64,000 nucleotides of DNA, from NCBI GenBank assembly GCA_000406005.1, contig ASZN01000014.1, positions 11,309-75,308 of the forward strand. Reading direction: 5' to 3'. This stretch comes from Candidatus Poribacteria bacterium WGA-3G (GTDB taxonomy: Bacteria; Poribacteria; WGA-4E; WGA-3G). Each line of letters begins with the position of its first letter. Positions within the stretch are counted from its first letter, which is position 1. Below are positions 31,428-56,872 of this stretch, in pieces. The translations under genes and the position numbers were made by a program. Under the pieces are notes generated by a model. The model was not told the origin of the DNA. It worked only from the letters and a program-made list of their open reading frames with translations, and made no database searches.

Positions 31428-32186
31428 TTAGTAGGTGTTGTTATCCCAAAAGACTTTGAAGGTGCGGAGGAGTATTTTGAAGTCGTTCCAGAACGATAAG
31501 TTTTCGATGTACGCCAAGTCGACACGGATACCTTCTCGGATTGTTCCACGTCTACGAGGACTGAGCTGCCAGAGTCCGGTCATTCCGGGACGAACAAGGT
31601 GGCGTTGATTTTCCCATGTTTCATAACCCTTTGCGAGGAACGGCATCTCGGGTCTCGGACCTACGAGGCTCATTTCGCCCTTCAGTACGTTGAAGAGTTG
31701 CGGCAATTCATCTAAACTTGTTTTGCGGAGCCATTTGCCGACGGATGTGATACGTCTGTCTTCTGTCGAGTCGGGTTTCTCAGAATAGGTTGGCGTATTG
31801 ACATGTAGACTGCGAAACTTGTGTATGACAAACAGTTCGTTGTTCAATCCGACGCGTTTATGTGAGAAGAAGACATCACCACGCGATGTCAGTTTAATAA
31901 GGACGGCAATCAGTACCATCAACGGGGCAAAAATAAGGATAAGGAAAAATGCAGCGATAGTATCAAACAGATGTTTGCCACGCTTTGCGTAGAAAGAGGA
32001 GAGTCGTTCCACGAGAGTTCCTGTTTTGGGTGAAGTTTGCAAGTCAAAACCTGCAGTTAAACTTTCAGTGCGATGCGCGCTTGTCTCGCTTACATCTTTT
32101 CCTATCTGATTTATACTTCTTGATAGGAATGGCATGGTTAATTCCTCTGATTGCGGTTCAATTTTAGACGTGGGTTTACACAGCAT
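31428..32186 (-). CDS. polyprenyl-phosphate sugar-1-phosphate transferase (bacterial sugar transferase family)
   Basis: Contains KRGKHLFD.., [43 protein letters not shown] and [11 protein letters not shown]. Confidence 0.85.
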
Positions 32187-32200
32187 TTATAACTGTAACG

Positions 32201-33322
32201 TCATGAGTTCTGCTGAAGTTTCTCAAAAACATCAAGATATTGCTGTGCGATAATGTCCCAATTGAATCGGTTTTGGATCTGTTCTGGCGCGCGTCGCCGG
32301 AAATCTTCAACCATCTCCGCATTTTGTTCTAACATCATTATCTTTTCTGTAAGTGATCCGACATTTTTATCGAAAAGTACGCCATAGCGTCCACTCTCTA
32401 AAACCTCATCGTTGAACGGCGTATTCAATGCAAGAATGCAATTAGAAAACCCTAACGCTTTCAGAATTGAGGGATTAATGCCGCCGAATTGATGTCCGTG
32501 GACATAGGCGAAACAGTGATGGTGAAGTTCTTTAATATGTTCAGAATTGTCAATATGTCCAAGAAATTTGACTTTCTCGTTGGCAATACTTTTTAATTTT
32601 GTCAAAAATTCGTTTTCGAGTTTGTTCCCTTTGTAGTCAGCACCACCAGCGATAGCCAATTGTTTTTGACTGTTTGATGCGACGAAAGCCTCTAAAATGA
32701 GGTCGGCATTGTTATCAGGGACAAGTCTGCTTGCGATAAGATAATAATTCCGAGATTCAAGCCCATAATTCTCCAATATTTCTGGGTGTTCTGAAGGTTC
32801 GATATTGGCACCGTAAGCGATATAAGTTGTTTCTGCCCCCAATTCCTCAAGGTATAACCGTTTCATTTCGGAAGCATCGGTAATGACAATCGGAAATGCT
32901 GCCGTTGCCATCCTTGCCGCCCATTTGAAGTAGGCGGCACCGATTCCTTTCCATTTCGGTCGTAACCACTCCATTCCATCAACATTGATAACGGCGGTTT
33001 TACCTGCGATTCGGAAGAACCATCCGAACGGACCGTTGCCAGCGTTCCACGTCAGAATGACATCCGATGCGGTAACTGAAGCGTGTACGGTTGCGAGAAA
33101 ACTGTGACTGAGGGTGCTGAAGAACTTATGTTCTATGCTCGGTAAGTAAACGAGCTTGATGCCTTTCCATTCCGTCAGTCTCTCTTTAAAAAGTGCTTTT
33201 CGGCAATAAACGATGACTTCATGTCCAGCGTCAACCCACCGTGGAGCGAGTTCCCCCATGATCGTTTCCAATCCACTATAAGTGGCGGGAAGCCCGCGTA
33301 TACCCAGTACCCGAATTTTCAT
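32201..33322 (-). CDS. glycosyltransferase (DUF1972 N-terminus plus GT4/GT1 C-terminus)
   Basis: MKIRVLGIRGLPATYSGLETIMGEL plus a C-terminal GT-B domain. Confidence 0.8.
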   Translation of the reverse strand: MKIRVLGIRGLPATYSGLETIMGELAPRWVDAGHEVIVYCRKALFKERLTEWKGIKLVYLPSIEHKFFSTLSHSFLATVHASVTASDVILTWNAGNGPFGWFFRIAGKTAVINVDGMEWLRPKWKGIGAAYFKWAARMATAAFPIVITDASEMKRLYLEELGAETTYIAYGANIEPSEHPEILENYGLESRNYYLIASRLVPDNNADLILEAFVASNSQKQLAIAGGADYKGNKLENEFLTKLKSIANEKVKFLGHIDNSEHIKELHHHCFAYVHGHQFGGINPSILKALGFSNCILALNTPFNDEVLESGRYGVLFDKNVGSLTEKIMMLEQNAEMVEDFRRRAPEQIQNRFNWDIIAQQYLDVFEKLQQNS

Positions 33323-33360
33323 TCTTTTTCCTTACCTCGTCCGAACACATTCCTGTATAT

Positions 33361-33390
33361 ATTATACCCGCTATAGGCGTGAAAGTCCAA
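33361..33390 (-). promoter_or_regulatory. sigma-70-like promoter for the GT and priming-transferase genes
   Basis: On the minus strand, TTGGAC, 18-nt spacer, TATAAT, about 35 nt before ATG 33322. Confidence 0.3.
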
Positions 33391-33499
33391 TTTCTTTTCA
33401 GGCACGGCATCCAGAAGCGATGCTTTGTAACCTTTGATGATCAAAGGGACATAAATCTTCATTTTTTCTAACCCCTGAGGCGAACGTTTTATCGGTTTT

Positions 33500-35176
33500 T
33501 TACCATGGAATTCGGGAGAGGAACTTGGCTTCAATTTCATTTGCGTTTTCGTGTACATCTCGACGGTTTCCTAAGTTTTGTCGCCATACGCGCGCCCACT
33601 CCACATAGATTGAATAGCGTCCTATAACGACCCAGTTCGCTCCAACCGAAAGACGATGCTCGCTTTGCGTAATCCCAGAGAGCGGTGTCCATACGTCATC
33701 TTTTGGTGCGTCAGGAGGGTGTTCCTTATCAATATTGCCTGTCCCATGACGTTCTAATTCATATCCGAAAATTGTCTCAAGTTTGTCTGTCCACCGACGC
33801 CGTAGTTCTAACCAAAGATTATCTGCGTCAGAGCCGATTCCATGCCCAATAGGTGTGGTAAAATGTTTGTAGACGTTTACGGGGTTTACGTGTGTATATG
33901 CGTATTGGTTGATAAAAGCATACTCGGCGTGGAAATCTGTATCTTTAATGCCGAATGGATCTGTTAGGTATATCCCGCCTAAGATGCCGAACTTGGTATC
34001 CCAATGCTTGAAACTCACAGCAGGATTCCCGTCGTCAACCATGAGTTCACCATAAATTTCAAAGTTGTCTATGGGACGCAGGCGCATATCAACGCTCATC
34101 ATAACGTTATCGCCACTACCCGAAACCCGACCATCTGCCCGTGAAATAGGTTGCTCATTAATCAAGTAAATATTGACCGGATTCAGATAGCCCGGCTCAA
34201 AACGGTTGCCGTAGACGACGACTTCGGAAAGCCCAAAACCGAATCTGTTCCAGAAATACCCCTCCGCCCTATGTCCCGAAATATACTTATCGTTGATGTC
34301 CTGCGACATATCTTCTAATATGCCAGTGAAGGCAGTGAAGGTAATGGGTTCGTAGGTGGCTTGCAATTTGATCATGTCCATGGCGAGTGGGTTTTTAGAA
34401 ATTAGCAGGCTATCATGATAGCCGGGTCCCCACTGGAGTGTCTCTTGTCCGAGTTGCAGCTCAAACCATGGTAAATCAAATTTCATATAACCGTTAATGG
34501 CAGTCCGATTTTTGAGATCTCCCTCCAACTGTCTAATTTTCGTCTCATCGGGAAAGAAATCTTCAAAAATCTCACCGTATACGAATCTGTGCGCGACATC
34601 GGTAGTAAAAGCGAACGTCTCTCCTACTTGTCCATAAGCGTGTGGATAGATGGTGGTAACAAACATGTTCCCTTCGACGGGTTGCGCATCCGACAGATTA
34701 TCGACAAGGTGCGTGATCGCCTGTTGTGAGACTCTCATATCAAAAGAGAGGCGATAGTTTTCGCCGGCTTTCGTTATCACGTGAAATCGTCCGCCAGATG
34801 GATTTTCAGGTGTGGTCCCACTGCTGTTCTTCACAGCCGGTTTCGGAAACTCGCGGGCTTCTCGGTAAAATGTTAACAAGGCGTTTAACCGTGCTTGATC
34901 AATAGTACTCAATTCGATTTCGCCATTTTCCTGTTTCCGATGTACCTCCAATAGGTAGGATACCACTTGTTTTCGAGTCAGTGGTAAGGAACCCCGCCGT
35001 ATACCGGGTAAAACTCGCTTATTAAGTAAACGATGTACAAAGCGATAGGTTTCACGATTAAAATCAGAAAGATCTGGGTTAAGAGGAACGTTAATCAGTG
35101 AAGAGGCTTCTGTCAGCGGGGAAGCCAATAGCAACATTGCAAGATAGATCATTAAAAGGTTCCGTAAAACTATCAT
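33500..35176 (-). CDS. outer-membrane beta-barrel protein, Wzi-like (capsule assembly family)
   Basis: Signal peptide. N-terminal helical segment YRFVHRLLNKRVLPG..SLPLTRKQVVSYL. Alternating beta-strand pattern with a terminal aromatic (..SRIPW). Confidence 0.5.
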   Translation of the reverse strand: MIVLRNLLMIYLAMLLLASPLTEASSLINVPLNPDLSDFNRETYRFVHRLLNKRVLPGIRRGSLPLTRKQVVSYLLEVHRKQENGEIELSTIDQARLNALLTFYREAREFPKPAVKNSSGTTPENPSGGRFHVITKAGENYRLSFDMRVSQQAITHLVDNLSDAQPVEGNMFVTTIYPHAYGQVGETFAFTTDVAHRFVYGEIFEDFFPDETKIRQLEGDLKNRTAINGYMKFDLPWFELQLGQETLQWGPGYHDSLLISKNPLAMDMIKLQATYEPITFTAFTGILEDMSQDINDKYISGHRAEGYFWNRFGFGLSEVVVYGNRFEPGYLNPVNIYLINEQPISRADGRVSGSGDNVMMSVDMRLRPIDNFEIYGELMVDDGNPAVSFKHWDTKFGILGGIYLTDPFGIKDTDFHAEYAFINQYAYTHVNPVNVYKHFTTPIGHGIGSDADNLWLELRRRWTDKLETIFGYELERHGTGNIDKEHPPDAPKDDVWTPLSGITQSEHRLSVGANWVVIGRYSIYVEWARVWRQNLGNRRDVHENANEIEAKFLSRIPW

Positions 35177-35191: not shown

Positions 35192-35888
35192 CTATTTGAG
35201 AATTACCATTTGGCGTGTGGTTCTGAATTGGCCTGCCTGAAATGTGTAGAAGTAGATACCACTCGCGACCGGTTCACCGACAGCGTTTCGACCATCCCAA
35301 TATGCGGCGCGAGATTGTATGCGATAGGTGCCAGCCGTCTGTAAACCGAGGGATAACTGCCGAATGGATTCACCTTTTAAGTTATAAATGTCAATGTTGA
35401 CATCCGCGTCTTCTGCTAAATCATAAGGTATCCACGTCTCAGGGTTGAAAGGATTCGGATAGTTCGGCAAAAGCACAGTTTCCGTCGGCAGAGTTGTGTC
35501 GATGAGGCGTTCTAAAGTAGCGATCCCTTGTCGAAAAACGTCAGAACCGTCGTCTGCGAACCGGGCTTCGGTCAGCCATTCATCGGCAAGCGTAGCGTGT
35601 TCGGCGCGAAGATGCGTTGACGCGGGCGGTGCTGCAGGATTGACAGATTCGCCGAAATGTGCGGCGACAAGGAGCAGATCAATGATGTCGACACGTCCGT
35701 CCTTGTTCACATCAACCTTCGGTGGTTCTGGGGACGCTACATCGAAGTTGTTTGCGACTAAAATCAGGTCTTGAATATCAACAGTCCCGTCGCTATCTAT
35801 ATCCCAAGGTAGCATTTGTGGAACAGGGATTTGTTCTTGCGTTTCAGGCAAAGCCTCTCGCCATCCAGCATGAAGTTGCTCGCTGAGG
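35192..35888. repeat. ~697-bp near-identical segment shared with 37283..37979
   Basis: The 3' ends of the two sulfatase genes align without indels at high identity, whereas the catalytic parts are much more diverged. Confidence 0.85.
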
Positions 35889-37270
35889 TGTGTGCCGAGT
35901 TCTGCGTTTTCCGGAAGATCCACGATATTAACGGTTTCATTTGGGTCAGTGCTGTAGTCATAGAGTTCTCGGCCAAGTTCTGCATTCTTTCCCCATTCGG
36001 TATATCGGTATTGTTCTGTTCGGATGGAGATACCACCATTTCGATTTCCACCGAACTCGCTAAAAGCAGCGGTTTTCCATGAACGCGCTGGTTGCTCAAT
36101 AACGGGCATCAGGCTTAAACCTTCTACCTTTGAAGGGACCGGGAGTTGGCAGGCATCACACAATGTAGGATAGATATCAACGAGTTCGCTGAGAACCTCG
36201 GTTCGGTTAGACTGTTGTCCCGGCACACTGATAATCAAAGGGGATCTGAGTGAAACCTCAAAAAGGGTTTGCTTTCCCCACATTCCGTGATCCCCAAGAT
36301 GGTAGCCGTGGTCTCCACAGAAAACGATAACCGTATTCTCCGTGAGTCCAAGTGAATCTAGCTGCGATAAAACTTGTCCGATTTGGGCATCCATATAGCT
36401 TGTGGCTGCGGCGTATGCTTTAATTAGATCCAGGGTTTTCGCGTCAGAAAGTGGCTCTGTTCCAGAAGGCAGATCTTGATAGGCTCTGATCGCGTTCCAA
36501 TTGTTGGTTGCTCTACTCGGAACATCCATAGGTGGCTCAGAAGAGGCAGGCAGGTTAAGGGTTTGGTCATCGTATAACTCAAAGTATTTCCTTGGTATCT
36601 TGTGAGGCAAATGAGGTTGGAAGAATCCGAGCGTTAAAAAAAATCGCTGGTCTTTGATCTGTTGCAATACTTCAACCGCCCGATTTGCGATTTTCCCATC
36701 CTCTAATTCATCGTCGGCAATATCTAAGATTTGCCATGAGGGTGTATCTGGTATACTATATGGAATGTAAATAGGTCTCCATGATGGAACACTCCATGAG
36801 TACGCATCATCTTGGAGACGCGGCAGCGTGAATACTCTACCGAGGGACTGTGTATGGTAACCGTGTGTTTTGAAATGTTGTGGTAGGGTTATTGCGTTTG
36901 GTACTGTTTGCCGCAAATCTGTTCTGTTATTTAGGATTTCCGTGGTCTCAGTTCTGAATCCAGTCATCATTGAAATTCGGGATGGACTACAGATCGGATA
37001 TTGACAGTATGCCCGGTTAAAGAGCGTGCCTCGATCAGCGATTCTATCAATATTGGGTGTGTGGATCTCCGGGTGACCATAACATCCAAGTAGAGGACGT
37101 AGATCGTCTCCAATGATAAACAACACGTTGTATTGCCCTTCTGCGTCGGCTTGGAGTTTAGGCAATAGCCCTGTCGTGAAAGCAGCTGCACCTACTTTGA
37201 AACTGGTTGAAAGAAAGTCTCGCCTGCTAAGTGCTTGTGACAACGCCTTCGATTGCTTTATCTGTTGCAT
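35192..37270 (-). CDS. Tat-exported formylglycine-dependent sulfatase with dockerin-like repeats and a T9SS-type C-terminal domain
   Basis: Tat signal SRRDFLSTSFKVGAAAF. CxPxR motif in YPICSPSRISMMTG. Dockerin-like segments DIDSDGTVDIQDLILV and DVNKDGRVDIIDLLLV. CTD sequence NYPNPFNPETWIPY...YFYTFQAG. Confidence 0.9.
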   Translation of the reverse strand: MQQIKQSKALSQALSRRDFLSTSFKVGAAAFTTGLLPKLQADAEGQYNVLFIIGDDLRPLLGCYGHPEIHTPNIDRIADRGTLFNRAYCQYPICSPSRISMMTGFRTETTEILNNRTDLRQTVPNAITLPQHFKTHGYHTQSLGRVFTLPRLQDDAYSWSVPSWRPIYIPYSIPDTPSWQILDIADDELEDGKIANRAVEVLQQIKDQRFFLTLGFFQPHLPHKIPRKYFELYDDQTLNLPASSEPPMDVPSRATNNWNAIRAYQDLPSGTEPLSDAKTLDLIKAYAAATSYMDAQIGQVLSQLDSLGLTENTVIVFCGDHGYHLGDHGMWGKQTLFEVSLRSPLIISVPGQQSNRTEVLSELVDIYPTLCDACQLPVPSKVEGLSLMPVIEQPARSWKTAAFSEFGGNRNGGISIRTEQYRYTEWGKNAELGRELYDYSTDPNETVNIVDLPENAELGTHLSEQLHAGWREALPETQEQIPVPQMLPWDIDSDGTVDIQDLILVANNFDVASPEPPKVDVNKDGRVDIIDLLLVAAHFGESVNPAAPPASTHLRAEHATLADEWLTEARFADDGSDVFRQGIATLERLIDTTLPTETVLLPNYPNPFNPETWIPYDLAEDADVNIDIYNLKGESIRQLSLGLQTAGTYRIQSRAAYWDGRNAVGEPVASGIYFYTFQAGQFRTTRQMVILK

Positions 37271-37282
37271 GATTCGATTTCC

Positions 37283-37979
37283 TTACTTTACAATTGCCAT
37301 TTGGCGTGTGATTCTGAATTGGCCTGCCTGAAACGTGTAAAAATAGATACCACTCGCAACGGGTTCACCGACAGCGTTTCGACCATCCCAATATGCGGCG
37401 CGAGATTGTATGCGATAGGTGCCAGCCGTCTGTAAACCGAGGGATAACTGCCGAATGGATTCACCTTTGAGATTATAAATGTGGATGTCGACATCCGCAT
37501 CTTCTGCTAAATCATAAGGTATCCACGTCTCTGGATTAAATGGATTCGGATAGTTGGGCAAAAGCACAGTTTCCGTCGGCAGAGTTGTGTTGGTGAGGCG
37601 TTCTAAAGTAGCGATCCCTTGTCGAAAGACATCAGAACCATCGTCTGCGAACCGGGCTTCGGTCAGCCATTCATCGGCAAGCGTAGCGTGTTCGGCGCGA
37701 AGATGCGTTGACACGGGCGGTGCTGCAGGATTGACAGATTCGCCGAAATGTGCGGCGACAAGGAGTAGATCAATGATGTCAACACGTCCATCCTTGTTCA
37801 CATCAACCTTCAGAGGTTTTGGGGACGCTACATCGAAGTTATTTGCGACTAAAATCAGGTCTTGGATATCGACAGTGCCGTTGTCATCTATATCCCAAGG
37901 TAACATTTGTGGAACCGAGATTTGTTCCTGCATCTCAGGCAAAGCCTCTCTCCATCCAGCGTGAAGTCGCTCGCTGAGG
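37283..37979. repeat. second copy of the sulfatase 3' repeat
   Basis: See 35192..35888; the offset is exactly 2091 bp. Confidence 0.85.
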
Positions 37980-39379
37980 TTTGATACAAGTTCCTCATTT
38001 TCTGGGATATCCACAATGTTAACGGTTTCATTAGGGTCAGCGTGATAATCGTAAAGTTCCCTGCCACGTTCGCCGTTTTGTCCCCACTCGGTGTATCGGT
38101 ATTGGGTTGTGCGCATGGAGTGCCCATCAATATTTGTACTTCTTTTAAGTTGACTAAACGCTGCTGTTTTCCATAGGCGTATAGGATCCTCAATCACGGG
38201 TAACATGCTAATTCCTTCCAACTCTGATGGAATAGATAATTGACAGATATCACACAGTGTCGGGTAGATATCGACCAATTCAACGAGTGCATCTGTTACG
38301 ACATCAGTATGGGTTTGTTGAGGGACACTGACTATCAGCGGTGAACGGACGGAATCTTCAAAAAGTGTGTTTTTTCTCCAGAGTCCATGTTCACCAAGAT
38401 GGAAGCCGTGGTCGCTCCAGAAAACGATGGCTGTATTTTCGGTGAGGTTTAGGGCATCTAACTGGTCTAAGACGCGACCGACCAAAGCATCAATATAACT
38501 CACATTTGCGGCGTATGCCAGCGTCAATTCTAAAGTTTTCTCGTCAGAAAACGGAGGATAATTTGAAATATCTTGATAAGCTTTCATCCCTTTAGGGTTA
38601 GAGGTTATGCTCGGTGCGTTTCTTGGGAGATTTGAATCAAGAGGTAATTTAAAGTCTTGTGTGGTGTATAAATCAAAGTATTTGCTTGGTGCATAGAAGG
38701 GTAGGTGTGGTTTGTTAAAACCGACTGCGAGGAAAAATTGTTTGTCTTTAATCTCGGTTAGGACTTCTATAGCTGCGTTCGCGATTCTACCATCTTCAAG
38801 TTCATCGTCATCAACATCAAGAGCCTGCCAAGATGGCGACTTTGTTTTATGAATGTATCGCCACGGCTCCCTCCAAATTGGCGCACTCCAAGAGAGTTCA
38901 TCCTTCCACGCAGCATCTCCGTGTGCGACTTTACCAACTGATCGGGTATGGTAACCGTAGTCTTTGAAATGTTGTGGCAGTGTCACAACTCCCGGGAGCA
39001 CCTCCCGAAAATCTGTAGGGTTATCCTGCACACCGGTTGTATCCGGGCGCAATCCAGTAAGTACTGAAGCGCGAGAAGGGTTGCAAACTGGAAATTGGCA
39101 ATCCGCACGGTTGAAGAGCGTACCACGTTCTGCGAGTTTGTCAATATTAGGTGAGTGTATTTCTGGATGGCCGTAGCACCCTAAAAGTGGTCGTAGGTCG
39201 TCTACAGCGATGAATAACACATTGTATGGACTATCCGCCTCCGCTCGGAGTTTAGGTAAAAGTCCGGTTGTAAAAGCGGCGGCTCCTGCCCTCAAACTCG
39301 TTGAAAGGAAATCTCTGCGGGTAAAATGCTGCTTTTGTGAGGCCTGTTCTTTTGTCTGTATATTTGATCCTTTAGGCAT
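37283..39379 (-). CDS. Tat-exported sulfatase paralogue with dockerin-like repeats and a T9SS-type CTD
   Basis: Tat signal TRRDFLSTSLRAGAAAF. CxPxR motif in FPVCNPSRASVLTG. The C-terminal ~230 aa are the same as in 35192..37270. Confidence 0.9.
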   Translation of the reverse strand: MPKGSNIQTKEQASQKQHFTRRDFLSTSLRAGAAAFTTGLLPKLRAEADSPYNVLFIAVDDLRPLLGCYGHPEIHSPNIDKLAERGTLFNRADCQFPVCNPSRASVLTGLRPDTTGVQDNPTDFREVLPGVVTLPQHFKDYGYHTRSVGKVAHGDAAWKDELSWSAPIWREPWRYIHKTKSPSWQALDVDDDELEDGRIANAAIEVLTEIKDKQFFLAVGFNKPHLPFYAPSKYFDLYTTQDFKLPLDSNLPRNAPSITSNPKGMKAYQDISNYPPFSDEKTLELTLAYAANVSYIDALVGRVLDQLDALNLTENTAIVFWSDHGFHLGEHGLWRKNTLFEDSVRSPLIVSVPQQTHTDVVTDALVELVDIYPTLCDICQLSIPSELEGISMLPVIEDPIRLWKTAAFSQLKRSTNIDGHSMRTTQYRYTEWGQNGERGRELYDYHADPNETVNIVDIPENEELVSNLSERLHAGWREALPEMQEQISVPQMLPWDIDDNGTVDIQDLILVANNFDVASPKPLKVDVNKDGRVDIIDLLLVAAHFGESVNPAAPPVSTHLRAEHATLADEWLTEARFADDGSDVFRQGIATLERLTNTTLPTETVLLPNYPNPFNPETWIPYDLAEDADVDIHIYNLKGESIRQLSLGLQTAGTYRIQSRAAYWDGRNAVGEPVASGIYFYTFQAGQFRITRQMAIVK

Positions 39380-49204: not shown

Positions 49205-49233
49205 AGCGATTGTCGGGTTACGGATGGACAAAC

Positions 49234-50229
49234 CTATTTCCAGCCATCGGGTAGATTTTTGCGAATTTCAATGTCACTAAATTCGGTAGCCGGACGTGGT
49301 CCAACCGATTTAGCCCACATTGCCATGCGACGAAGCCCCTCGTCTAATGCGACTTGCGATGTTTTTCCGAAAACCTGCTGAAACCTCTCATGGGAACAAT
49401 AGGCGTGTTTAACCTCCTCCCTCGCGTGAACATTAATGACAGGCACTTCCCTATCCATAGCTGTCATCACTAAATCTGCTAGCTCGTTGACTGAGACGTG
49501 TTCATCCGAACCGAGGTTAAAAATTTGCCCCGATGCCTCCGATATATCCACAGCACGGGCGATGTGTGGAGCGACATCTGCGATATGTGTGAAGGCGCGC
49601 GTCTGCTCTCCATCTCCAAAAATGCGCAGCGGCTTATCCTGCATAATGTTGTTCATGAAGATACCGATAACGTTTCGATACTTGTCGCTGATATTCTGGA
49701 GTTCACCATAAACGTTGTGCGGACGGAAAATCGTATAATCCAAACCGAAGAGCCGTTTGGAGACAGCGAGTTCCTGTTCTACGGCATATTTAGCAATACC
49801 GTAGGAATCTTCTGGCATCGGTGTGAGTGCTTCGTGCATCGGGAGTTGGTTCTCTCCATAAACAGCGATAGAAGAAGTGAACACAAACCGCTTGACATTG
49901 TGGTTTATTGCTGCATTGATGAGGTTTACACTTCCAATCAGGTTATTCTGATAGTTAAATCGTTTGATGAAGTGGCTGAGCCCTTCGGCTGCGTAGGCAG
50001 CGAGATGATAGATATAGTCGAATTTATATTGCTCACAGAGCCGATTTATCAGCGCAACATCAAGGATGCTTCCCTCAACGAAAGTTGAGGTGGAATTAAG
50101 GTTCTCTCGGAAACCACCGCTGAGGTCGTCAAGTGCGACAACATCTGTATCACCACGACGGAGGAGTTCGTCAACGACGTGGGCGCCCATAAAGCCTGCG
50201 CCGCCCGTAACCAATGCGTTTTTTTTCAT
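49234..50229 (-). CDS. NAD-dependent epimerase/dehydratase (extended SDR)
   Basis: Contains VTGGAGFMGAHVV and YGIAKYA. Confidence 0.9.
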   Translation of the reverse strand: MKKNALVTGGAGFMGAHVVDELLRRGDTDVVALDDLSGGFRENLNSTSTFVEGSILDVALINRLCEQYKFDYIYHLAAYAAEGLSHFIKRFNYQNNLIGSVNLINAAINHNVKRFVFTSSIAVYGENQLPMHEALTPMPEDSYGIAKYAVEQELAVSKRLFGLDYTIFRPHNVYGELQNISDKYRNVIGIFMNNIMQDKPLRIFGDGEQTRAFTHIADVAPHIARAVDISEASGQIFNLGSDEHVSVNELADLVMTAMDREVPVINVHAREEVKHAYCSHERFQQVFGKTSQVALDEGLRRMAMWAKSVGPRPATEFSDIEIRKNLPDGWK

Positions 50230-50239: not shown

Positions 50240-52849
50240 TTACTTTAATACGACGAGTCGTTTTGTCTGTTTGAACGTTGGCGTTGTCAATTCGTAGATA
50301 TAGACCCCGCTTGCTACTTGTTCTCCGAGTTCGTTTCTGCCGTCCCAATACGCTGCTCGACTGCGCTCCAGATAATACCCAGAAGTTTGATGTCCAGAGA
50401 AAAGCGTCCGCACGGTTTTGCCTTTCGTATTATAGATGCGTATGGTGATTTCGGCATCTACCGCGAGTTGATACGGTATCCATGTCTCTGGATTAAAAGG
50501 GTTCGGATAGTTAGGATAGAGTTTCGTCTGCAAGGGACCCTCAGCAGGCATCAGCAGATGCCTCAAGAAACGTCTTACCCGCTCTATTTGTGTAGTGCCT
50601 TCTGGCATTTCTTCAATTTTTTGGTAAAAAGCGTGAAGGAGGTCAATATCAGCGTCTGACAGTGTAGCGGTACGATTTGAAATAATATTTTGCGTCGGTG
50701 CCGCAGCACCGTTTTGATTTTCCTCAATGATTTCAATAATGTGAACCAGGTCTTCAATGTTGACCTGTCCATCATTGTTGGTATCAACGCGTGGGTTTGT
50801 AGGTGGACTTTCTCCAAAGTGAACCAGGACGCTAAGTAGATCAAGTATATCCACGAGTCCATCCCGATTGACGTCCCCCGGAATTACTGTTTGCACACCG
50901 TCCTCAACGACATGTAATACTTGGTTCACTGGTACGTCGGTCAACTTTTGGAGGACACCGCTTGGCCAGTGAATGACCAATTCGCTGACGGTTTCATTCT
51001 GCGCGAGTCCAAAATGGATACGTTTCTGGTCTTGTTGGCACCAATGTATACCTCCGCCGTTTTCTCGTAACTGGGTTTTCCCATCAGGTGTGGTTGCGAA
51101 AAGCCTTGCGCCGATCCCATCACGATTTGAGATAGTTCCTTCCAAGTCAACCTGTAGCCAATTGTTACTATTACTGGTAGTATTCCGGTAAAGCTGATCA
51201 GGTCCTTCGTTAAAGGGGTACGCGCCTCTACCATTGGTCACAAAGAGGTCGAGGTATCCGTCCCTATCGTAGTCAGCCATTGTGACACTCATTCCTCTTC
51301 CTTCTGTGCTTCCTTCTGCACCACCAGCCCCTGATAATTGGTGAAAAGTTCCGTCCCCTTGATTTTCGTAAAGATGATTTGGGAAATTGCTGGTGCTACT
51401 TGAGCGAACGACATAAAGGTCAACGTCCATATCATTGTCGAAGTCGCCAGCGGTAGCCGAATATCCGTCAAGTGCCTGAAAAAAAGTAGGTACCGGGGCA
51501 AATTTATTTTCCTGACTGGTTAAAAGAACTGAGCGTGGCTGGTAAGAGAGATCATATACAGAAAAGTTAATGGGTTCTACTTCAACTATTGGTTGATTCG
51601 CCTCTATAAGTGCTTCAAGTCCGGTCCAATTCGTTTGGATATCGGGATCTGTATGGTACAATAGGGTCCACCGATCTGAGTTTGGGTTGTATCCGATGTA
51701 CATGCCCCAGAGTTCGTTTGCCGGACGCGGTTTGAGTCCGACGACTCTTGGATCGTCTGGAGTCAATGCGAATAAGAAGGAGGCAACATTTCGAATAGGA
51801 TCGTTCGGAATAAATTCGCCGTTAAATGCTGTCAGCCGATGTCCCTCTTCACCAATAGATAAGTGGTTTAATCGTGTTGCCCAAACGGTATGAATTTCAA
51901 ATCGGACTTCACCGCGTGTCTTAAAACTGAACCCTTTTTCACCGCTGTTAACTTGAATGTATGTTCTGATTTGATGTTCGTTTTCTGTGTCAATATAGTT
52001 ACGTGCGATCCCACGTGTAAGGAATGCATCAGTGAGTAGGTCCCCGTTGAAATCCACGAATATTGCATCTCGGACATCATAGAGGAGTTTTGGAATGTAA
52101 AAAACTTCACTTAATTCTTTAAACGGTTTAACCGATATATCATATACGCCTCCTGGATAAGGCCTGCCATCAATAAGTATCTCCATGCTTCCATCGCCAG
52201 TTATATCTGTCATCTGCGCTAATGAAGTATCTTTAGTAATTTGGAAACCCGATATTTCATTAACATTAGCGAAACTGCTGGGTGTCTGGGCAAAGATCGT
52301 TGAAGTTACGAGGTTACTTACGCTATCGCGACGGACCCAGCCGGTGACAAGCAGATCCAATCGTCCGTCGCCGTTCCAGTCGAACCAAAGCGGTGATCTA
52401 CCGCGAAGTAGTGGGAGTGATATACCGAATTCCGCAGCTTTCTCTACAAGTACGCCACCCTCATTAACATAAAAATGATTGCTAAACTTGGTATTCGTAG
52501 GGTTTGTTCCGCCGCCGCCGCCGGATAAGACGATAAGGTCTTGGTCGCCGTCATTATCATAATCTGCCCACGCCACACCGTGTGTATCTGCGTCCGGATT
52601 TGCGTTCCAGACCTCATTAATAATGTCTGTGAAAGTTCCATCACCGTTGTTACGATAGAGACTCGGCTTGTGTTTGTGGTTCGTCGCCCATAAATCCAAA
52701 TATCCGTCGCCATCGAAATCGCCCCAAGCGTTTCCCCAACTTTCACCGATTCGCGTAATTCCGGCTTGGTGTGACACTTCTTCAAATTGGATTTCACTCC
52801 ATGCGGGAATCAGAAAAGAGAAAAACGACAATAATATTAAAATTCGCAT
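50240..52849 (-). CDS. FG-GAP/VCBS repeat plus ASPIC/UnbV protein with a dockerin-like module and a T9SS-type CTD
   Basis: Signal peptide. Repeated DxDxDG motifs (FDGDGYLDLW, DYDNDGDQDL, DWNGDGRLDLL, DYDRDGYLDLF). UnbV-like DGIGARLFATT...IHWPSG. Dockerin-like GDVNRDGLVDILDLL and DTNNDGQVNIEDLV. CTD sequence NYPNPFNPETWIPY. Confidence 0.85.
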   Translation of the reverse strand: MRILILLSFFSFLIPAWSEIQFEEVSHQAGITRIGESWGNAWGDFDGDGYLDLWATNHKHKPSLYRNNGDGTFTDIINEVWNANPDADTHGVAWADYDNDGDQDLIVLSGGGGGTNPTNTKFSNHFYVNEGGVLVEKAAEFGISLPLLRGRSPLWFDWNGDGRLDLLVTGWVRRDSVSNLVTSTIFAQTPSSFANVNEISGFQITKDTSLAQMTDITGDGSMEILIDGRPYPGGVYDISVKPFKELSEVFYIPKLLYDVRDAIFVDFNGDLLTDAFLTRGIARNYIDTENEHQIRTYIQVNSGEKGFSFKTRGEVRFEIHTVWATRLNHLSIGEEGHRLTAFNGEFIPNDPIRNVASFLFALTPDDPRVVGLKPRPANELWGMYIGYNPNSDRWTLLYHTDPDIQTNWTGLEALIEANQPIVEVEPINFSVYDLSYQPRSVLLTSQENKFAPVPTFFQALDGYSATAGDFDNDMDVDLYVVRSSSTSNFPNHLYENQGDGTFHQLSGAGGAEGSTEGRGMSVTMADYDRDGYLDLFVTNGRGAYPFNEGPDQLYRNTTSNSNNWLQVDLEGTISNRDGIGARLFATTPDGKTQLRENGGGIHWCQQDQKRIHFGLAQNETVSELVIHWPSGVLQKLTDVPVNQVLHVVEDGVQTVIPGDVNRDGLVDILDLLSVLVHFGESPPTNPRVDTNNDGQVNIEDLVHIIEIIEENQNGAAAPTQNIISNRTATLSDADIDLLHAFYQKIEEMPEGTTQIERVRRFLRHLLMPAEGPLQTKLYPNYPNPFNPETWIPYQLAVDAEITIRIYNTKGKTVRTLFSGHQTSGYYLERSRAAYWDGRNELGEQVASGVYIYELTTPTFKQTKRLVVLK

Positions 52850-53493
52850 TTTTCCTCTTTACCTTTGCTCCAACGTTTAGATTGTTGCGTAAGTCCTATC
52901 ATATTCGTTTTTAATAGGACATTGTTGTCCAATTTACCTTTTGATGCTATGAGTGAACCGGGAACCCGTACGTGCAAAAGACTGGGATCTTTAATAGCTT
53001 TAAGCCGTTTCGCTATCGTTAGTTTCGGGACATCTTCGCAGACCATGACCCCCGGTGTGGCACATAGTGATGTATACATCCTAAAAAATGCAACTTGTTG
53101 GTCGTGTATATGTTCGGCATCATCAATCAGAAGATGATAGGGCCCGTGACGGGCGGCATCTTGTACGCCTTGCTCGGTGTATGCGTCAACTTTAAGAAAA
53201 ACGCCTTTCTCCCCAAAATCTTCCTGAATTGGATTTACATCAAGCCCTACAAATTTCTCTACAAACGGCATCTTTGCAAAAGCGTGCCCACTGCCTTCAC
53301 CAAACATAGTGACCCCTATTTCTAAGACGCGTATAGGCTGCATCCTATTTTGAAAAAGAAGCGAGGCAAACAGCCAGTCATACAGGTTTCCATAATCGTG
53401 GCGAACGCCTGTTTTGTCAGAATTAGATTCATCGAAATAAGCTGAAGGTGGTTTCTCTGAAAAACGGTCTACCAAAGATATCTCTGAAGCCAT
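52837..53493 (-). CDS. class I SAM-dependent methyltransferase-like protein
   Basis: Contains RVLEIGV..GEGSG, FVGLDVN and LLIDDAEH. This is a weak motif-level call. Confidence 0.4.
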   Translation of the reverse strand: MASEISLVDRFSEKPPSAYFDESNSDKTGVRHDYGNLYDWLFASLLFQNRMQPIRVLEIGVTMFGEGSGHAFAKMPFVEKFVGLDVNPIQEDFGEKGVFLKVDAYTEQGVQDAARHGPYHLLIDDAEHIHDQQVAFFRMYTSLCATPGVMVCEDVPKLTIAKRLKAIKDPSLLHVRVPGSLIASKGKLDNNVLLKTNMIGLTQQSKRWSKGKEEKCEF

Positions 53494-53524: not shown

Positions 53525-54727
53525 TTACAAAAACTTCCGATATACATCCATAATTTTTTCATAGTGAATGTCGGCATTAAATTTTGTTTCCATTTTTTTT
53601 CGAGCGGCGTTACCCATCTCTGTCACTTCGGTTTTATGTTCGTACATCCATAGTAAACGGTCACGTAATAATTCATGTTCTCCGGGTGGCACCAAAAGCC
53701 CATCGACCTCATTTTCTATCAATTCTGGTATCCCGCCTATATTTGCGCCGATTACGGGTTTGCCGTAAGCAAAGGATTCTAAAACGGCCATCGGGCAATT
53801 TTCATACCATTCGGATGGCAAAATTGTGCACATACTGTTTAGAATCAATTCACGGAGTTCCTCGCCCTGTTTAAAACCCAAGAGGTGAATATGTTTGCAC
53901 CCGTTTTCTTCTATCATTTGCTGGACTTCAGATATTGCTTCGCCATCCCCAGCGATATAGAGAGGGATCTGTTTAAGTGGAGCTGCTGCCTTTATCAATG
54001 TTAGAATACCTTTGCTTCGATCCACCCGCCCAAAATAAAGGACATATTCACCGACAGAAAAATTTGGGACGATGTCAGAGACATCTGTAAAGTTATGAAT
54101 TGTTGAAATCTTATTTTCAGGAATCCCGTACTGTATCATTTTTTTCCTGAGAAAATGGGACACTGAAATAAAATGATCGAATTTATCGACTGAACCGAGG
54201 AAACGAGAGACATAGGATTCAGTGACACTCAGTGCTGTGCGCGCGAGTGAACGCCTATTGCACCGCTTTGGAAGTGCACGCCGAAAATATTTCCCTTCAC
54301 ATGCTTCACAAATTTCATCGCTTGACAAATGCGTAGCCACTGGGCAAGTTAACTTATAATCGTGTAACGTCTGAATAAGGGGTATACCGGTTTTTTTTAG
54401 GCTACCCAAAATTGAGGCAGTTAGTTTACCGTGGTAGATATGAAAGTGCGCGATATCTACGTTTGTATTGCCTAATAACTTCTGCATTGATTTCATGGCA
54501 TCGCGTGAATATACAAAACGTAGTAGGTCGCCAGTTCCGGGTCGCTCGAAATCCGCACCGCGCGGAAAATAATCCTCCCATTCGGACGGTTCATTCTTGG
54601 TGCTCGCGGCTGTAAAAGGGATGACTTGATGTCCATGCTTTTTCAACAGTTCAGCAAGAACAAAAAAGTATCGGTCGGAGCCGCCGCGGACATGATAATT
54701 TTGTGAGACATTTAGAATAGTGTGCAT
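53525..54727 (-). CDS. GT4-family glycosyltransferase
   Basis: Contains MHTILNVSQNYHVRGGSDRY... and PSEWYENCPMAVLESFAYGKPVIGANIGGIPELI. ATG at 54727; the track's start is a GTG at 54769. Confidence 0.85.
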   Translation of the reverse strand: MHTILNVSQNYHVRGGSDRYFFVLAELLKKHGHQVIPFTAASTKNEPSEWEDYFPRGADFERPGTGDLLRFVYSRDAMKSMQKLLGNTNVDIAHFHIYHGKLTASILGSLKKTGIPLIQTLHDYKLTCPVATHLSSDEICEACEGKYFRRALPKRCNRRSLARTALSVTESYVSRFLGSVDKFDHFISVSHFLRKKMIQYGIPENKISTIHNFTDVSDIVPNFSVGEYVLYFGRVDRSKGILTLIKAAAPLKQIPLYIAGDGEAISEVQQMIEENGCKHIHLLGFKQGEELRELILNSMCTILPSEWYENCPMAVLESFAYGKPVIGANIGGIPELIENEVDGLLVPPGEHELLRDRLLWMYEHKTEVTEMGNAARKKMETKFNADIHYEKIMDVYRKFL

Positions 54728-54851
54728 TCTATTAGGGTCGATGATGTTCTGGTTTTTAGGTTTTGGCACGACAACACCTCAGAGATTGTGAGAAAAGGCA
54801 TTCGATATCCGGATATGGTAATATACGGAACACAAAATGTCAAGTTTCAAG

Positions 54852-55748
54852 TTATCGCCGCGGCACGCCATGGTGTAAAGAATTTACCCATTCACCTAAC
54901 CGTTGTGGGATTGTTGTGAGCTGTGCCCGGAAAAGAAGGGGTCCAGCATCATCAGCAATCGGAACAGTCTTGAGTTGATGTGGTGCAGTCTTTAGTGTAT
55001 TCCAGCCTATATCTGTTGTACGCGCCGATCGGAATCCACCTATTTTTACGATCTCGATTTCGCGTTCTGTATAATCGCCGTTGGGGTAACTAAAATGGGA
55101 ACACTCAATTCCTAAAAGTTTTTCCAAGTCTGTTTTGCTTCCGAGGATTTCCCGTCTACATTCCGTTTCTGTACAGTGCGTCAGGATTGGATGGAACTGT
55201 GTATGGGGTTGAAAATCAACGTTGTCTCCCATCTTTTCCATTTCCTTGATATTTAGTGCCTGCCTGTCTGGATACGTTTTTTCTGGTTCAAAGTCAGTTG
55301 TCCACTTCAGGTGCGCCAATCGTTTTGCATTTGGCAGTCGCTTCAGTTTTTCTTTTTCTGCTTTGGACTGCCCTTCTATTTTGAACCAGAAATGCCGATA
55401 TGTATTGATAATCTGCGTAGAAACAAAGAGTGTCGGACGAATACGGTACTGCTTGAAAAGGTCCAAAAGTTCGATATTACCGGCGTGGCCGTCGTCGATT
55501 GTAATTATAACGCTCTTTGCCGGAATCCGTGAAAAATCCTTCTGGTAGATAGCATCAACCAAGACATCAAGTGAGATAATCGTCCAATGGCGCGAGAGAT
55601 AATTGAGGTGTTTGGCAAAGACCGTAGCCTTCGGATCGTGATACATGAGGATGGCGACTCGATTTCGGCAGAGGCGTTCCCGAATGAGAACGTGTATGCC
55701 TGCTAAACAGATTAGGATTGCCACGATATTTTTAAAAAGATTACGCAT
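54852..55748 (-). CDS. polysaccharide deacetylase (CE4)
   Basis: N-terminal TM segment, VIITIDDGHAGN, and downstream His motifs (QPHTQFHP). Confidence 0.8.
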   Translation of the reverse strand: MRNLFKNIVAILICLAGIHVLIRERLCRNRVAILMYHDPKATVFAKHLNYLSRHWTIISLDVLVDAIYQKDFSRIPAKSVIITIDDGHAGNIELLDLFKQYRIRPTLFVSTQIINTYRHFWFKIEGQSKAEKEKLKRLPNAKRLAHLKWTTDFEPEKTYPDRQALNIKEMEKMGDNVDFQPHTQFHPILTHCTETECRREILGSKTDLEKLLGIECSHFSYPNGDYTEREIEIVKIGGFRSARTTDIGWNTLKTAPHQLKTVPIADDAGPLLFRAQLTTIPQRLGEWVNSLHHGVPRR

Positions 55749-55821
55749 CAATTAGATATTCCGGTGGAACATAGAATTCAGAAGTGTTAACCTGCTTTAA
55801 AATCGCATCCGACAAACCTTA

Positions 55822-56739
55822 CTATCTTGGCAATTCGGCGAGGAGTGTCGGATATGGAAAACCTGCATCGGCGATCTCGGCATCCACAAACGGTTCATAA
55901 AGGACGGTGCCTATCTGTTTCGCAATCAAACCTGGATCGCCGCCATCTATGATGGTATCCATTATTTCAATGGGGTCTGCACTGCCCCACCAGTTGTTCG
56001 GTATCGTAAAATCGAATTTTACATTTAACCTCAGGGCGAAAACGTTTGCATTCAGGTTGTTATGTTGAATGATAGACTGTACATTTTCAGAGAAGATACC
56101 TGTCTCATTTTTCGTGATCTTATTTTTCTGAATACGGGGAAGCGTCTGACGTCCGATCGTGCTAATTCCGGTGTTGTTGTCAAGAATATCGTTGTGATAG
56201 ATGTGCGCATCACTCCCATCCAAAGCGATACCGGTTTCATTGAGGCGGAGCGTGCATTCTGCTATCGTTGGTGATGTTGTCTTAATGTCCAGAGCGATTG
56301 TAGCATATTGTATAACAGCACCTCTGATAAAACTCTCCAGATCGTGTGTGTGGTCAAAGAAAATACCGTTCCAATCGCCGGGTGCCGGTCCGATATTGTC
56401 GGATGTGAGATGTACGAGTTGGGTTACCTGCTCTTGTGTTAGAGGTGTTCCAATCTTTAGGATACCTTGGACGGTGATGCGTGCCTCTCTCCCAAATTTA
56501 ACGGTGGTTCCCGGTGAAATATTGAGGGTTATATCCTTTGGAATCTCCAATGAGCCGTGGACAATGTACGTCTTCTCGGGTTCCCATGTTTCATCTTCGA
56601 TGAGTCGGTAGTCTTCAAGTACGATCTCGGTGCCATCTTCGGATGGGAGATGATTGATGGTATCTGGCGTTGTACACCCCGTGCCTAATGCTAAACTTAG
56701 GTAAAAAAGTAAGAAGCAGTGTATGAATCGAATTTTCAT
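55822..56739 (-). CDS. right-handed parallel beta-helix lipoprotein
   Basis: MKIRFIHCFLLFYLSLALGTG-C lipobox with ATG at 56739. Repeated N-x-I/L-x-x-N-x-x-G turns (HNDILDNNTGIS, NKITKNETGIF). Confidence 0.6.
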   Translation of the reverse strand: MKIRFIHCFLLFYLSLALGTGCTTPDTINHLPSEDGTEIVLEDYRLIEDETWEPEKTYIVHGSLEIPKDITLNISPGTTVKFGREARITVQGILKIGTPLTQEQVTQLVHLTSDNIGPAPGDWNGIFFDHTHDLESFIRGAVIQYATIALDIKTTSPTIAECTLRLNETGIALDGSDAHIYHNDILDNNTGISTIGRQTLPRIQKNKITKNETGIFSENVQSIIQHNNLNANVFALRLNVKFDFTIPNNWWGSADPIEIMDTIIDGGDPGLIAKQIGTVLYEPFVDAEIADAGFPYPTLLAELPR

Positions 56740-56872
56740 TGTTCGTCTATTTTTTTCCAATAAATTTCTTATTTTATAGCGTTTGTTGCGATTGGCGGAA
56801 ATTTGCATCAAAAAATTTGGATACATAGGTCAATTTTATAGTAAAGTTTAGAATTAATTGGGCACTCTCAAA

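Follow-up and report, generated by a model that had tools for sequence, protein, structure and literature searches.

The 64-kb window analysed here (64,000 nucleotides of contig ASZN01000014.1 from Candidatus Poribacteria bacterium WGA-3G) contains, at 31428–56826, a block of 19 co-directional minus-strand genes in which four cytoplasmic sulfotransferases are interleaved with genes for surface-polysaccharide assembly. We propose, with a probability of roughly 0.65, that this locus is a vertically inherited chromosomal pathway of Poribacteria for a densely sulfated cell-surface glycan, built by a Wzx/Wzy-type route on undecaprenyl phosphate. The gene arrangement is far beyond chance, as the central part of the locus keeps its gene order in 60 of 67 species genomes of the phylum, and the residues expected to bind and use the sulfate donor 3′-phosphoadenosine 5′-phosphosulfate (PAPS) are invariant throughout.

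The 19 open reading frames (ORFs) were taken from the ORF map of the window and are numbered G1–G19 from 31428 upward; all lie on the minus strand, so that G19 is the 5′ end. Neighbouring genes are between −28 and +180 bp apart, apart from one larger spacer of 460 bp at 39952–40411, in agreement with a first-pass annotation of the same DNA that had described about 20 minus-strand genes with short or overlapping junctions. Family assignments are based on Pfam at the gathering score (GA), NCBIfam cut-offs and PDB sequence searches, which recovered nearly every family named in that annotation; the priming transferase, the GT4/GT1 enzymes, the flippase, the Wzi homologue, the epimerase and the CE4 deacetylase are all above the Pfam GA. 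The genes forming the conserved skeleton of the locus are as follows.

31428–32186, minus strand: G1, priming polyprenyl-phosphate hexose-1-phosphate transferase of the small Bac_transf type, with one membrane helix.
32201–33322, minus strand: G2, GT4 glycosyltransferase with a DUF1972 N-terminal domain, Cps2T/WchF-like, a candidate rhamnosyltransferase.
33500–35176, minus strand: G3, Wzi-like outer-membrane protein with an N-terminal signal (Caps_assemb_Wzi, 4e-21).
40412–41413, minus strand: G7, cytoplasmic PAPS-type sulfotransferase 1, TPST/NoeE-like branch (Sulfotransfer_3, 9e-25).
41594–42622, minus strand: G8, cytoplasmic PAPS-type sulfotransferase 2, CurM/OLS/TPST-like branch (Sulfotransfer_3, 1.7e-29).
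42713–44344, minus strand: G9, GH51-like glycoside hydrolase of clan GH-A with a lipoprotein-like signal; core member.
44468–45847, minus strand: G10, polytopic Wzy_C-family membrane protein with about ten hydrophobic segments.
45978–46898, minus strand: G11, cytoplasmic PAPS-type sulfotransferase 3, 3rnl/heparan-sulfate 3-OST-like branch (Sulfotransfer_1, 1e-11).
46871–47809, minus strand: G12, cytoplasmic PAPS-type sulfotransferase 4, 3rnl/NDST N-sulfotransferase-like branch (Sulfotransfer_1, 3.8e-12).
47891–49231, minus strand: G13, MurJ-like flippase of the MOP superfamily with multiple transmembrane segments (MurJ, 5.3e-35, 121.3 bits, plus MatE).
49234–50229, minus strand: G14, nucleotide-sugar 4-epimerase-like enzyme of the extended short-chain dehydrogenase/reductase type (Epimerase, 3.8e-52).
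53525–54769, minus strand: G17, GT4 glycosyltransferase (Glycos_transf_1, 5e-31; Glyco_transf_4, 1e-19).
55822–56826, minus strand: G19, right-handed β-helix protein with an LGTGC lipobox-like signal, at the 5′ end of the skeleton.

The claim of four sulfotransferases holds: all exceed the Pfam thresholds (G7 and G8 with 88.6 and 104.1 bits against a GA of 27 for Sulfotransfer_3, G11 and G12 with 45.2 and 46.6 bits against a GA of 22 for Sulfotransfer_1) and none was reassigned by the profile searches. The loops GTGRSGTT, GNSRSGTT, GAQKSGTS and GGTTKAATTS quoted in the first-pass annotation are present in the translations and align with the 5′-phosphosulfate-binding (5′-PSB) loops of TPST1, NDST1 and the bacterial enzyme 3rnl, while the R...S motifs, likewise present, align with the 3′-phosphate-binding (3′-PB) motifs of the same proteins. 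Each enzyme has an invariant glutamate at the position of the catalytic base (E92 in G7, E30 in G8, E39 in G11 and E40 in G12), matching the EETR of TPST1 and the KEAHFF of 3rnl. The PAPS-binding and catalytic positions do not vary in the 61–66 poribacterial orthologues available per gene, at overall identities of 59–93%. In G7, which aligns to TPST1 over the 5′-PSB loop, the glutamate and the 3′-PB motif, the invariant residues are G70-R71-S72-G73, T75, E92, R176 and S184 (65 sequences); in G8 they are GNSRSGTT, E30, R141 and S149 (62 sequences), with PDB matches to 4gox (3e-10) and TPST2 (1e-7). G11 keeps K16, G18, T19, E39, R106, R111 and S114 in 66 sequences and matches 3rnl (1.4e-31) and heparan-sulfate 3-OST-1 (7e-11), and G12 keeps TTKAATTS, KETRFF, R108 and S116 in 67 sequences and matches 3rnl (3.8e-19) and NDST1 (1e-12), the latter with both the PSB and PB loops aligned. 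Pairwise identity among the four is at most 25%, so recent duplication does not account for them. All four lack signal peptides and transmembrane segments, and the G12 and G11 genes overlap by 28 nt. With four distant, genuine cytoplasmic sulfotransferases of the PAPS type inside a glycan locus, a multiply sulfated heteropolysaccharide, as the first-pass annotation had it, is the best reading of the product.

The assembly genes bear out the Wzx/Wzy-type logic that had been recognized in the locus, with a priming transferase, GT4 enzymes, a MOP flippase, a Wzy_C-like protein and Wzi. G1 matches Bac_transf with 212.5 bits (4.5e-63) and has a hydrophobic segment at residues 71–108; its NCBIfam matches to EPS_sugtrans (1e-77) and WcaJ (1.5e-69) cover the C-terminal domain only and are below the equivalog cut-offs. 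An orthologue follows G2 in eight loci among those that extend that far. G2 (Glycos_transf_1, 7.8e-16; DUF1972, 6e-13) aligns over its full length with the NCBIfam model of the β-1,4-rhamnosyltransferase Cps2T (9e-54, 183 bits for a cut-off of 500 bits) and is 84–94% identical to its copies in other Poribacteria; G17 is 71–93% identical in most loci that reach it. The flippase G13 scores 107.7 bits against TIGR01695, below the MurJ equivalog cut-off of 235.6 bits, and is therefore not the housekeeping lipid II flippase. G14 (GalE in NCBIfam, 6e-43, below the cut-off) is 79–96% identical across species, and G3 scores 75.9 bits against Caps_assemb_Wzi (GA 30.1) with 67–91% identity among loci. 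For G10, we favour the role of a polymerase, although it may instead be a ligase or O-oligosaccharyltransferase. The Wzy_C gene is usually the most variable in polysaccharide loci; G10 is among the most conserved genes here (72–95% identity across species), which points to one conserved repeat unit across the phylum.

A scan for orthologues of G12, with one genome per species, gave 68 loci with relatives, comprising 67 in Poribacteria (59–91% identity) and one in a metagenome-assembled genome (MAG) of Anaerolineae (48%). An identical G12 protein is encoded on a contig of GCA_026713365.1 that is 99.2–99.9% identical to the window. The order of the skeleton is [Pnkp–Hen1], G19, G17, slot A, G14, G13, G12, G11, G10, G9, G8, G7, slot B, G3, G2, G1, where slot A denotes the variable space between G17 and G14 and slot B that between G7 and G3. 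The eight-gene core G14–G7 (in ascending coordinates two sulfotransferases, the glycoside hydrolase, the Wzy-like protein, two sulfotransferases, the flippase and the epimerase) forms an unbroken block of constant order in 60 of the 67 species genomes; three of the seven exceptions are truncated contigs. Complete poribacterial chromosomes that carry the locus are OZ244821.1, OZ241378.1, OX639973.1 and OY764073.1. An RNA-repair pair consisting of Pnkp (kinase–phosphatase–ligase) and Hen1 lies directly upstream on the same strand (56974–61017), 147 nt from G19, and its adjacency to the locus is syntenic in many Poribacteria. This synteny, together with a G+C content equal to that of the flanks, points to a locus that is native and not an island.

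Among the 68 G12-type loci, none from outside Poribacteria shows the complete architecture. The Anaerolineae locus (L065, contig CAYMKL010000001.1, 988–19328) is a distinct polysaccharide cluster that shares only the 48%-identical G12-type sulfotransferase and otherwise encodes Wzz/GNVR, two Wzy_C proteins (one fused to TPR), a GT2 enzyme, a B12-radical SAM protein, a radical SAM-SPASM protein and a methyltransferase. In one species (L064, 14918–17464), the locus is interrupted after G11, and the neighbourhood then has a GH67N/GH20b-like protein that bears the sorting tail described below.

Two exported lipoproteins belong to the conserved part of the locus. G9 is distantly similar to GH51 arabinofuranosidases (4e-10 in the PDB and 1e-10 in a profile search, over the N-terminal half only, including the GNE motif; NCBIfam ArfA, 2.6e-10; precomputed PF22848), and the glutamates of its LGNE (E203) and TEW (E326) motifs are invariant in 65 sequences. 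The family is essentially confined to Poribacteria. An AlphaFold2 model computed with 34 orthologues was too poor to use (mean predicted local distance difference test 49, predicted TM-score 0.47), which leaves the family call to sequence comparison. The earlier assignment to a clan GH-A hydrolase thus stands as a distant GH51-like one (PDB E = 4e-10); a heparanase-like GH79 reading was rejected, since that match (17.4 bits) is below the GA while GH51 is consistent in the PDB, NCBIfam and precomputed Pfam results. G19 matches NosD (5e-9) and Beta_helix (9e-9) and adjoins G17 in about 35 loci at 55–85% identity, with Pnkp/Hen1 alongside. Hydrolases or β-helix enzymes of the periplasm are embedded in several exopolysaccharide loci, such as PslG in Psl, AlgL and AlgG in alginate and BcsZ in cellulose synthesis. 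The poribacterial locus resembles these in keeping an exported hydrolase with intact catalytic residues and a β-helix protein among biosynthetic genes, and differs in that G9 is GH51-like and not a GH39 or GH8 enzyme or a PL5 lyase.

The remaining six genes are accessory.

35192–37270, minus strand: G4, secreted S1 (formylglycine) sulfatase with a Tat-type signal, CSPSR motif, dockerin and type IX secretion system (T9SS)-type C-terminal domain; slot B.
37283–39379, minus strand: G5, secreted S1 sulfatase with a CNPSR motif and a Tat-like signal, a paralogue of G4 with like architecture; slot B.
39394–39951, minus strand: G6, lipoprotein-like protein of 185 residues with an LIGC lipobox-like signal; slot B.
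50240–52849, minus strand: G15, secreted FG-GAP/ASPIC protein with a dockerin and T9SS-type tail; slot A.
52837–53493, minus strand: G16, cytoplasmic protein of 218 residues, weakly sugar-O-methyltransferase-like; slot A.
54852–55751, minus strand: G18, membrane-anchored CE4 polysaccharide deacetylase with an N-terminal hydrophobic anchor (Polysacc_deac_1, 2.2e-17).

Export signals are found in G3, G4, G5, G6, G9, G15 and G19. The two CxPxR sulfatases of the first-pass annotation are recovered with their motifs and with Sulfatase and SGSH_C domains in both (Sulfatase, 156.5 and 148.1 bits for G4 and G5, 1.3e-45 for G4); both also have dockerin and FlgD_ig/Por_Secre_tail domains (Dockerin_1 and FlgD_ig for G4), and G4 exceeds the cut-off of the T9SS sorting model TIGR04183 (25.6 bits, cut-off 23). 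Their best PDB matches are 6hhm (7e-85) and human iduronate-2-sulfatase (1e-61), which we take to be SulfAtlas S1_7 enzymes, whence the label S1_7-like for G4 and G5. The paralogues are 71% identical overall and about 60% in the catalytic domains, with nearly identical C-terminal stretches of about 210 residues, which suggests gene conversion or a recent exchange of tails. The near-identical tails (dockerin, linker and sorting domain) lie at 35192–35830 and 37283–37920 and include a 300-nt DNA repeat of 93% identity, and a 108-nt piece of the sulfatase tail matches that of G15 at 75%. Pfam upholds the FG-GAP/ASPIC call for 50240–52849 (FG-GAP_3, 1e-36; UnbV_ASPIC, 9e-16; Dockerin_1; FlgD_ig), with TIGR04183 at 33.2 bits (cut-off 23), as well as that of the β-helix lipoprotein at 55822–56826. 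G15 is of variable presence. G6, present in about half of the loci, and G16 have no Pfam or NCBIfam match. The methyltransferase-like call for G16 comes down to one weak PDB match (8ia9, the demethylmacrocin O-methyltransferase TylE, E = 0.0036), followed by MycE at 0.17, with LEIGV and IDDxxHI aligned; the gene occurs in 10 of 67 other poribacterial loci. G18 was seen, besides the window, only in L001, L004, L005, L021, L039 and L045 among the mapped loci.

Slot B holds from none to two sulfatases, and at least one in 44 loci; in at least 14 loci without any, the wzi gene directly follows the sulfotransferase genes. Sulfatases are thus frequent and tightly packed companions of the locus (gaps of 12–15 nt in the window) but dispensable accessories. 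Depending on the species, slot A contains G16, lamin-tail-domain proteins, FG-GAP proteins and one to three leucine-rich repeat (LRR) proteins; a sulfatase is present there now and then, and an IS605-type transposase in a single case. Nearly all slot proteins end in a dockerin and a T9SS-type A domain, and the three such tails of the window all fall inside the locus. With the tail of G4 as the query (35195–35833), 6369 protein clusters were found at E <= 1e-10, where the N-terminal domains joined to it include cohesin, WD40 and sulfatase, among others; NCBI names the poribacterial relatives 'T9SS type A sorting domain-containing protein'. The idea that the sulfatases are in the locus because of the chemistry of its glycan is weakened by these results, since the slots elsewhere hold LRR, lamin-tail and FG-GAP proteins and the tail occurs in more than 6000 clusters. 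These sulfatases and other extras might modify the polymer after its export or have glycans of the host as substrates, and the pathway as we reconstruct it would not require them. The first-pass annotation had spoken of built-in remodelling enzymes and of a polymer that is partly deacetylated and trimmed or recycled. This is supported in part: the GH51-like and β-helix lipoproteins are part of the conserved skeleton, whereas the CE4 enzyme (in about six loci), the sulfatases (which 14 or more loci lack), the FG-GAP protein and the methyltransferase-like protein all belong to the variable complement. A core logic of N-deacetylation followed by N-sulfation, pairing the CE4 enzyme with the NDST-like G12, was likewise rejected, as the CE4 gene is confined to about six loci and its product has a membrane anchor.

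Several further observations concern the slots and their surroundings. Tailed lamin-tail and LRR ('eukaryote-like') proteins stand co-directionally in slot A at L002:1875–4796, L003:2391–4700, L021:3247–7300, L066:3098–5029 and L069:3804–5183, and the joint occurrence of cohesin and dockerin on tailed proteins hints at a possible cell-surface cohesin–dockerin network. In L046, an IS605 OrfB/TnpB-type gene in slot A (6084–7262) and a sulfatase remnant reduced to SGSH_C, dockerin and tail in slot B (17312–18337) look like signs of slot turnover. The 460-nt non-coding spacer between G7 and G6 (39952–40411) carries short repeats of the GTAACCA/GTAACTG type without an Rfam match; it is also present in L001, and in most of the other species it does not reach such a length. 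The start codon and 5′ leader of G7 lie within a perfect 79-nt tandem duplication (41410–41567); the L001 contig (99.2–99.9% identity) has a single copy of the unit, which leaves a strain polymorphism or an artefact of the assembly as explanations. Elsewhere in the window, 868–8672 is a block of eukaryote-like domains, with an ECF sigma factor fused to CarboxypepD_reg and a C-type lectin, followed by another C-type lectin protein and a pair of large WD40 proteins, and the PcfJ-like protein, PIN-domain protein and N6/N4 DNA methylase at 13058–15410 and 22334–23290 hint at mobile or defence-related functions. No tRNA genes or Rfam matches were found in a scan of the window.

The pathway that we propose is inferred at every step from homology, topology and synteny. 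G1 would place a hexose-1-phosphate on undecaprenyl phosphate, and G2, possibly a rhamnosyltransferase, and G17 would elongate it to a repeat unit of roughly three sugars, with G14 providing an epimerized nucleotide sugar. G7, G8, G11 and G12 would then sulfate different positions of the lipid-linked unit in the cytoplasm with PAPS as the donor, giving up to about 1.3 sulfates per sugar (four sulfotransferases for about three sugar-adding enzymes); the resulting charge density could approach that of heparin. The sulfated unit would be flipped to the periplasmic face by G13 and polymerized by G10, and the Wzi-like G3 may hold or organize the polymer at the cell surface. G9, as a putative retaining hydrolase, and G19 may process the chain in the periplasm, as the embedded hydrolases of other exopolysaccharide systems do.

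The occurrence of sulfotransferases inside surface-polysaccharide loci is already known, and the poribacterial locus is a further member of this kind. In the xss cluster of Synechocystis sp. PCC 6803, sulfotransferases in a Wzx/Wzy cluster have been proven genetically to make the sulfated exopolysaccharide synechan (Maeda et al. 2021, PMC8205485). As in Poribacteria, sulfotransferases of different subfamilies are accompanied there by a priming glycosyltransferase and a flippase, together with a polymerase, for which G10 is the poribacterial candidate. The lipid-linked unit in the cytoplasm is the proposed site of sulfation in Synechocystis too, and its outer-membrane polysaccharide export (OPX) gene lies outside the cluster (PMC8205485). 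However, xss has two sulfotransferases for eight glycosyltransferases (about two sulfates per eight sugars) whereas the poribacterial locus has four for about three; xss includes a polysaccharide co-polymerase (PCP) gene and the XssQRS regulators, both lacking in Poribacteria, and resides on a megaplasmid of one strain, while the poribacterial locus is chromosomal and phylum-wide. The Wzi, the GH51-like and β-helix lipoproteins and the sulfatases of Poribacteria have no equivalent in xss. Sulfated capsular polysaccharides are also encoded in the marine Gammaproteobacteria Vibrio sp. KMM 8419 (PMC11641403) and Cobetia marina KMM 1449 (PMC11766843), which again combine sulfotransferases and a surface-polysaccharide locus in a marine, animal-associated bacterium. 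Sulfation of rhamnose is proposed in the Vibrio (PMC11641403), and the poribacterial locus has a rhamnosyltransferase-like enzyme; the Vibrio capsule, in contrast, depends on a Kps ABC transporter and has its own cysNDC genes, termed a hallmark, and the loci are strain-variable with flanking mobile elements (PMC11641403), whereas the poribacterial locus is conserved and has neither Kps nor cysNDC.

Other systems share parts of the design. With the group 1 (K30-type) capsules of Escherichia coli the locus has in common a Bac_transf priming transferase, a flippase, a Wzy_C-type protein and a Wzi homologue, but the K30-type system uses Wza–Wzb–Wzc, none of which is present in the window, and the poribacterial flippase is MurJ-like and not of the Polysacc_synt type. 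To our knowledge, there is no sulfation in the E. coli group 1 system. G11 and G12 align with the 3-OST and NDST domains of the animal heparan-sulfate enzymes at E = 1e-10 to 1e-12, and the PAPS loops are conserved between them; among solved structures, however, bacterial proteins come closest (3rnl at 1e-31 and 4e-19, and 6hhm at 7e-85 for the sulfatases). In animals, the polymer itself is modified, and this happens in the Golgi, whereas the poribacterial enzymes must work in the cytoplasm on a unit still bound to its lipid carrier. The label 'glycosaminoglycan-like' given to the product in the first-pass annotation is not sustained: the sugar-adding enzymes of the locus are GT4 proteins, one of them rhamnosyltransferase-like, and a priming transferase, the hydrolase is GH51-like and not heparanase-like, and the locus encodes no GT2/GT45-type synthase, no UDP-glucose dehydrogenase and no exporter of the Kps type. 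Porphyromonas gingivalis makes an anionic lipopolysaccharide (A-LPS) with Wzx/Wzy-type genes, which coexists with cargo carrying the T9SS type A C-terminal domain. TIGR04183 is above the cut-off in G4 and G15, while the poribacterial tail differs in being preceded by a dockerin; a link between glycan and cargo by analogy with A-LPS would be pure conjecture.

A number of points weigh against a complete sulfated-polysaccharide pathway at this locus. The sugar-adding enzymes amount to two GT4 proteins and one priming transferase, and additional glycosyltransferases could lie elsewhere. The Wzy-like call stands as regards a polytopic membrane protein, but the Wzy_C score of G10 (23.4 bits, 5.6e-5) falls below the GA of 31.7, and the same family also holds O-antigen ligases and O-oligosaccharyltransferases, so that several final acceptors are possible. 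The nearest relatives of G7 and G8 in the PDB are protein-tyrosine and polyketide sulfotransferases; their carbohydrate role is suggested by gene context and by a weak match to NoeE, the Nod-factor fucose sulfotransferase. The G3–G2–G1 part is not adjacent to the core in a few species, and a promoter and terminator scan returned the counts expected from shuffled sequence and is uninformative on operon structure. Among the ORFs scanned in the 64-kb window there are no genes for PAPS synthesis (cysC/cysDN), WaaL was not found there, and Wza/Wzc-type (OPX/PCP) genes are missing both from the window and from the mapped 10-kb flanks of related loci. A sulfatase maturase (FGE/anSME) and T9SS machinery genes are likewise missing among the scanned ORFs. 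The absences of Wza/Wzc, cysC/cysDN and FGE/anSME listed in the first-pass annotation hence hold for every scanned ORF of the window. The PCP/OPX components could be encoded elsewhere, by analogy with xssT in Synechocystis, and a supply of PAPS has indirect support from the invariant PAPS-binding residues together with the assimilatory sulfate reduction module reported in Poribacteria genomes (PMC8546597).

With unchanged chemistry, the sulfated unit might have another destination, as a lipopolysaccharide O-antigen or a capping oligosaccharide, for which either G10 polymerizes and a WaaL encoded elsewhere ligates or G10 itself ligates to lipid A-core. Export by Lpt would explain why no Wza/Wzc-type (OPX/PCP) gene is found in the window; G10 matches only the Wzy_C 'O-antigen ligase' family; genes for a fused LpxC–FabZ, LpxA and LpxI lie on the plus strand at 25261–28303, 3–6 kb from the locus; and the O-antigen of a marine Vibrio has been suggested to be sulfated (PMC11641403). 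We nevertheless regard this explanation as unlikely, given a conserved, above-threshold homologue of Wzi, a protein known from capsule retention, and a conservation across the phylum that contrasts with the normally hypervariable O-antigen loci; the OPX gene of Synechocystis lies outside its cluster as well.

The small number of sugar-adding enzymes (about three) and the single Wzy_C-family protein would also suit general protein O-glycosylation, with G10 as a PglL-type oligosaccharyltransferase that transfers a short sulfated glycan, and no polymer, onto the dockerin- and sorting-domain-tailed proteins. PglL and PilO are themselves Wzy_C proteins, and an O-glycosylation locus is found throughout the phylum Bacteroidetes. 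A phylum-wide locus with a Wzy_C gene of 72–95% identity is what a fixed core glycan would entail, and tailed secreted proteins are interleaved co-directionally in most species. Yet the Pfam scan gave no match to PglL-specific models, and the Wzi homologue and conserved periplasmic hydrolase suit a polymer better, which makes this explanation quite improbable in our judgement. Least of all do we expect a mosaic, in which a catabolic set for sulfated host glycans, made up of the sulfatases, the glycoside hydrolase and the FG-GAP/ASPIC and β-helix proteins, happens to lie beside an ordinary unsulfated polysaccharide locus and the sulfotransferases act on proteins, lipids or small molecules. Poribacterial sulfatases have been read in the literature as tools for feeding on the sulfated polysaccharides of sponges (PMC5649159), the presence of the sulfatases and of the FG-GAP protein varies among loci, their secretion tail is a general one (>6000 protein clusters), and the PDB neighbours of G7 and G8 noted above fit other acceptors. 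However, the sulfotransferase genes are interleaved with those of the polymerase, flippase and hydrolase in an order constant in 60 of 67 species, with short gaps and the 28-nt overlap; neither a transporter (SusCD or an ABC importer) nor a gene of sugar catabolism is present in the block; and species without sulfatases retain all four sulfotransferases.

The locus, which we read as a Wzx/Wzy-type pathway for a sulfated surface glycan, stands out from the known members of its kind by a much higher ratio of sulfotransferases to glycosyltransferases, a Wzi homologue, conserved lipoproteins, the lack of PCP, OPX and cys genes within it, slots for tailed proteins and its phylum-wide occurrence in animal symbionts. 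Nothing in the literature that was searched ties Poribacteria to sulfotransferases, sulfated glycan synthesis, dockerins or T9SS, and an earlier mention may exist outside it. Sulfated polysaccharides are typical of animals and algae, and genetically defined bacterial pathways are few (synechan and a handful of marine capsules). Poribacteria, uncultured and abundant symbionts of sponges, have so far been discussed only as consumers of the sulfated sugars of the host; the conserved four-sulfotransferase pathway indicates that they probably also make a highly sulfated glycan. Four distinct conserved candidate carbohydrate sulfotransferases and the secreted sulfatases also represent enzymes for making and editing sulfated glycans.

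A more far-reaching and rather doubtful possibility is that the glycan forms a phylum-wide, host-facing polyanion coat which imitates the sulfated polysaccharides of the sponge matrix and also serves, in the manner of A-LPS in Porphyromonas, as an anchor or matrix for the hundreds of surface proteins with dockerin/T9SS tails, among them sulfatases, LRR, FG-GAP, cohesin and WD40 proteins. Both variable slots of the locus contain genes for proteins of this sort. Such surface masking or mimicry is a candidate answer to the question of how sponge cells tell symbionts from food bacteria. If the glycan is a coat of this nature, the locus would be a determinant of the recognition of Poribacteria by sponge cells as 'self' and not as food.

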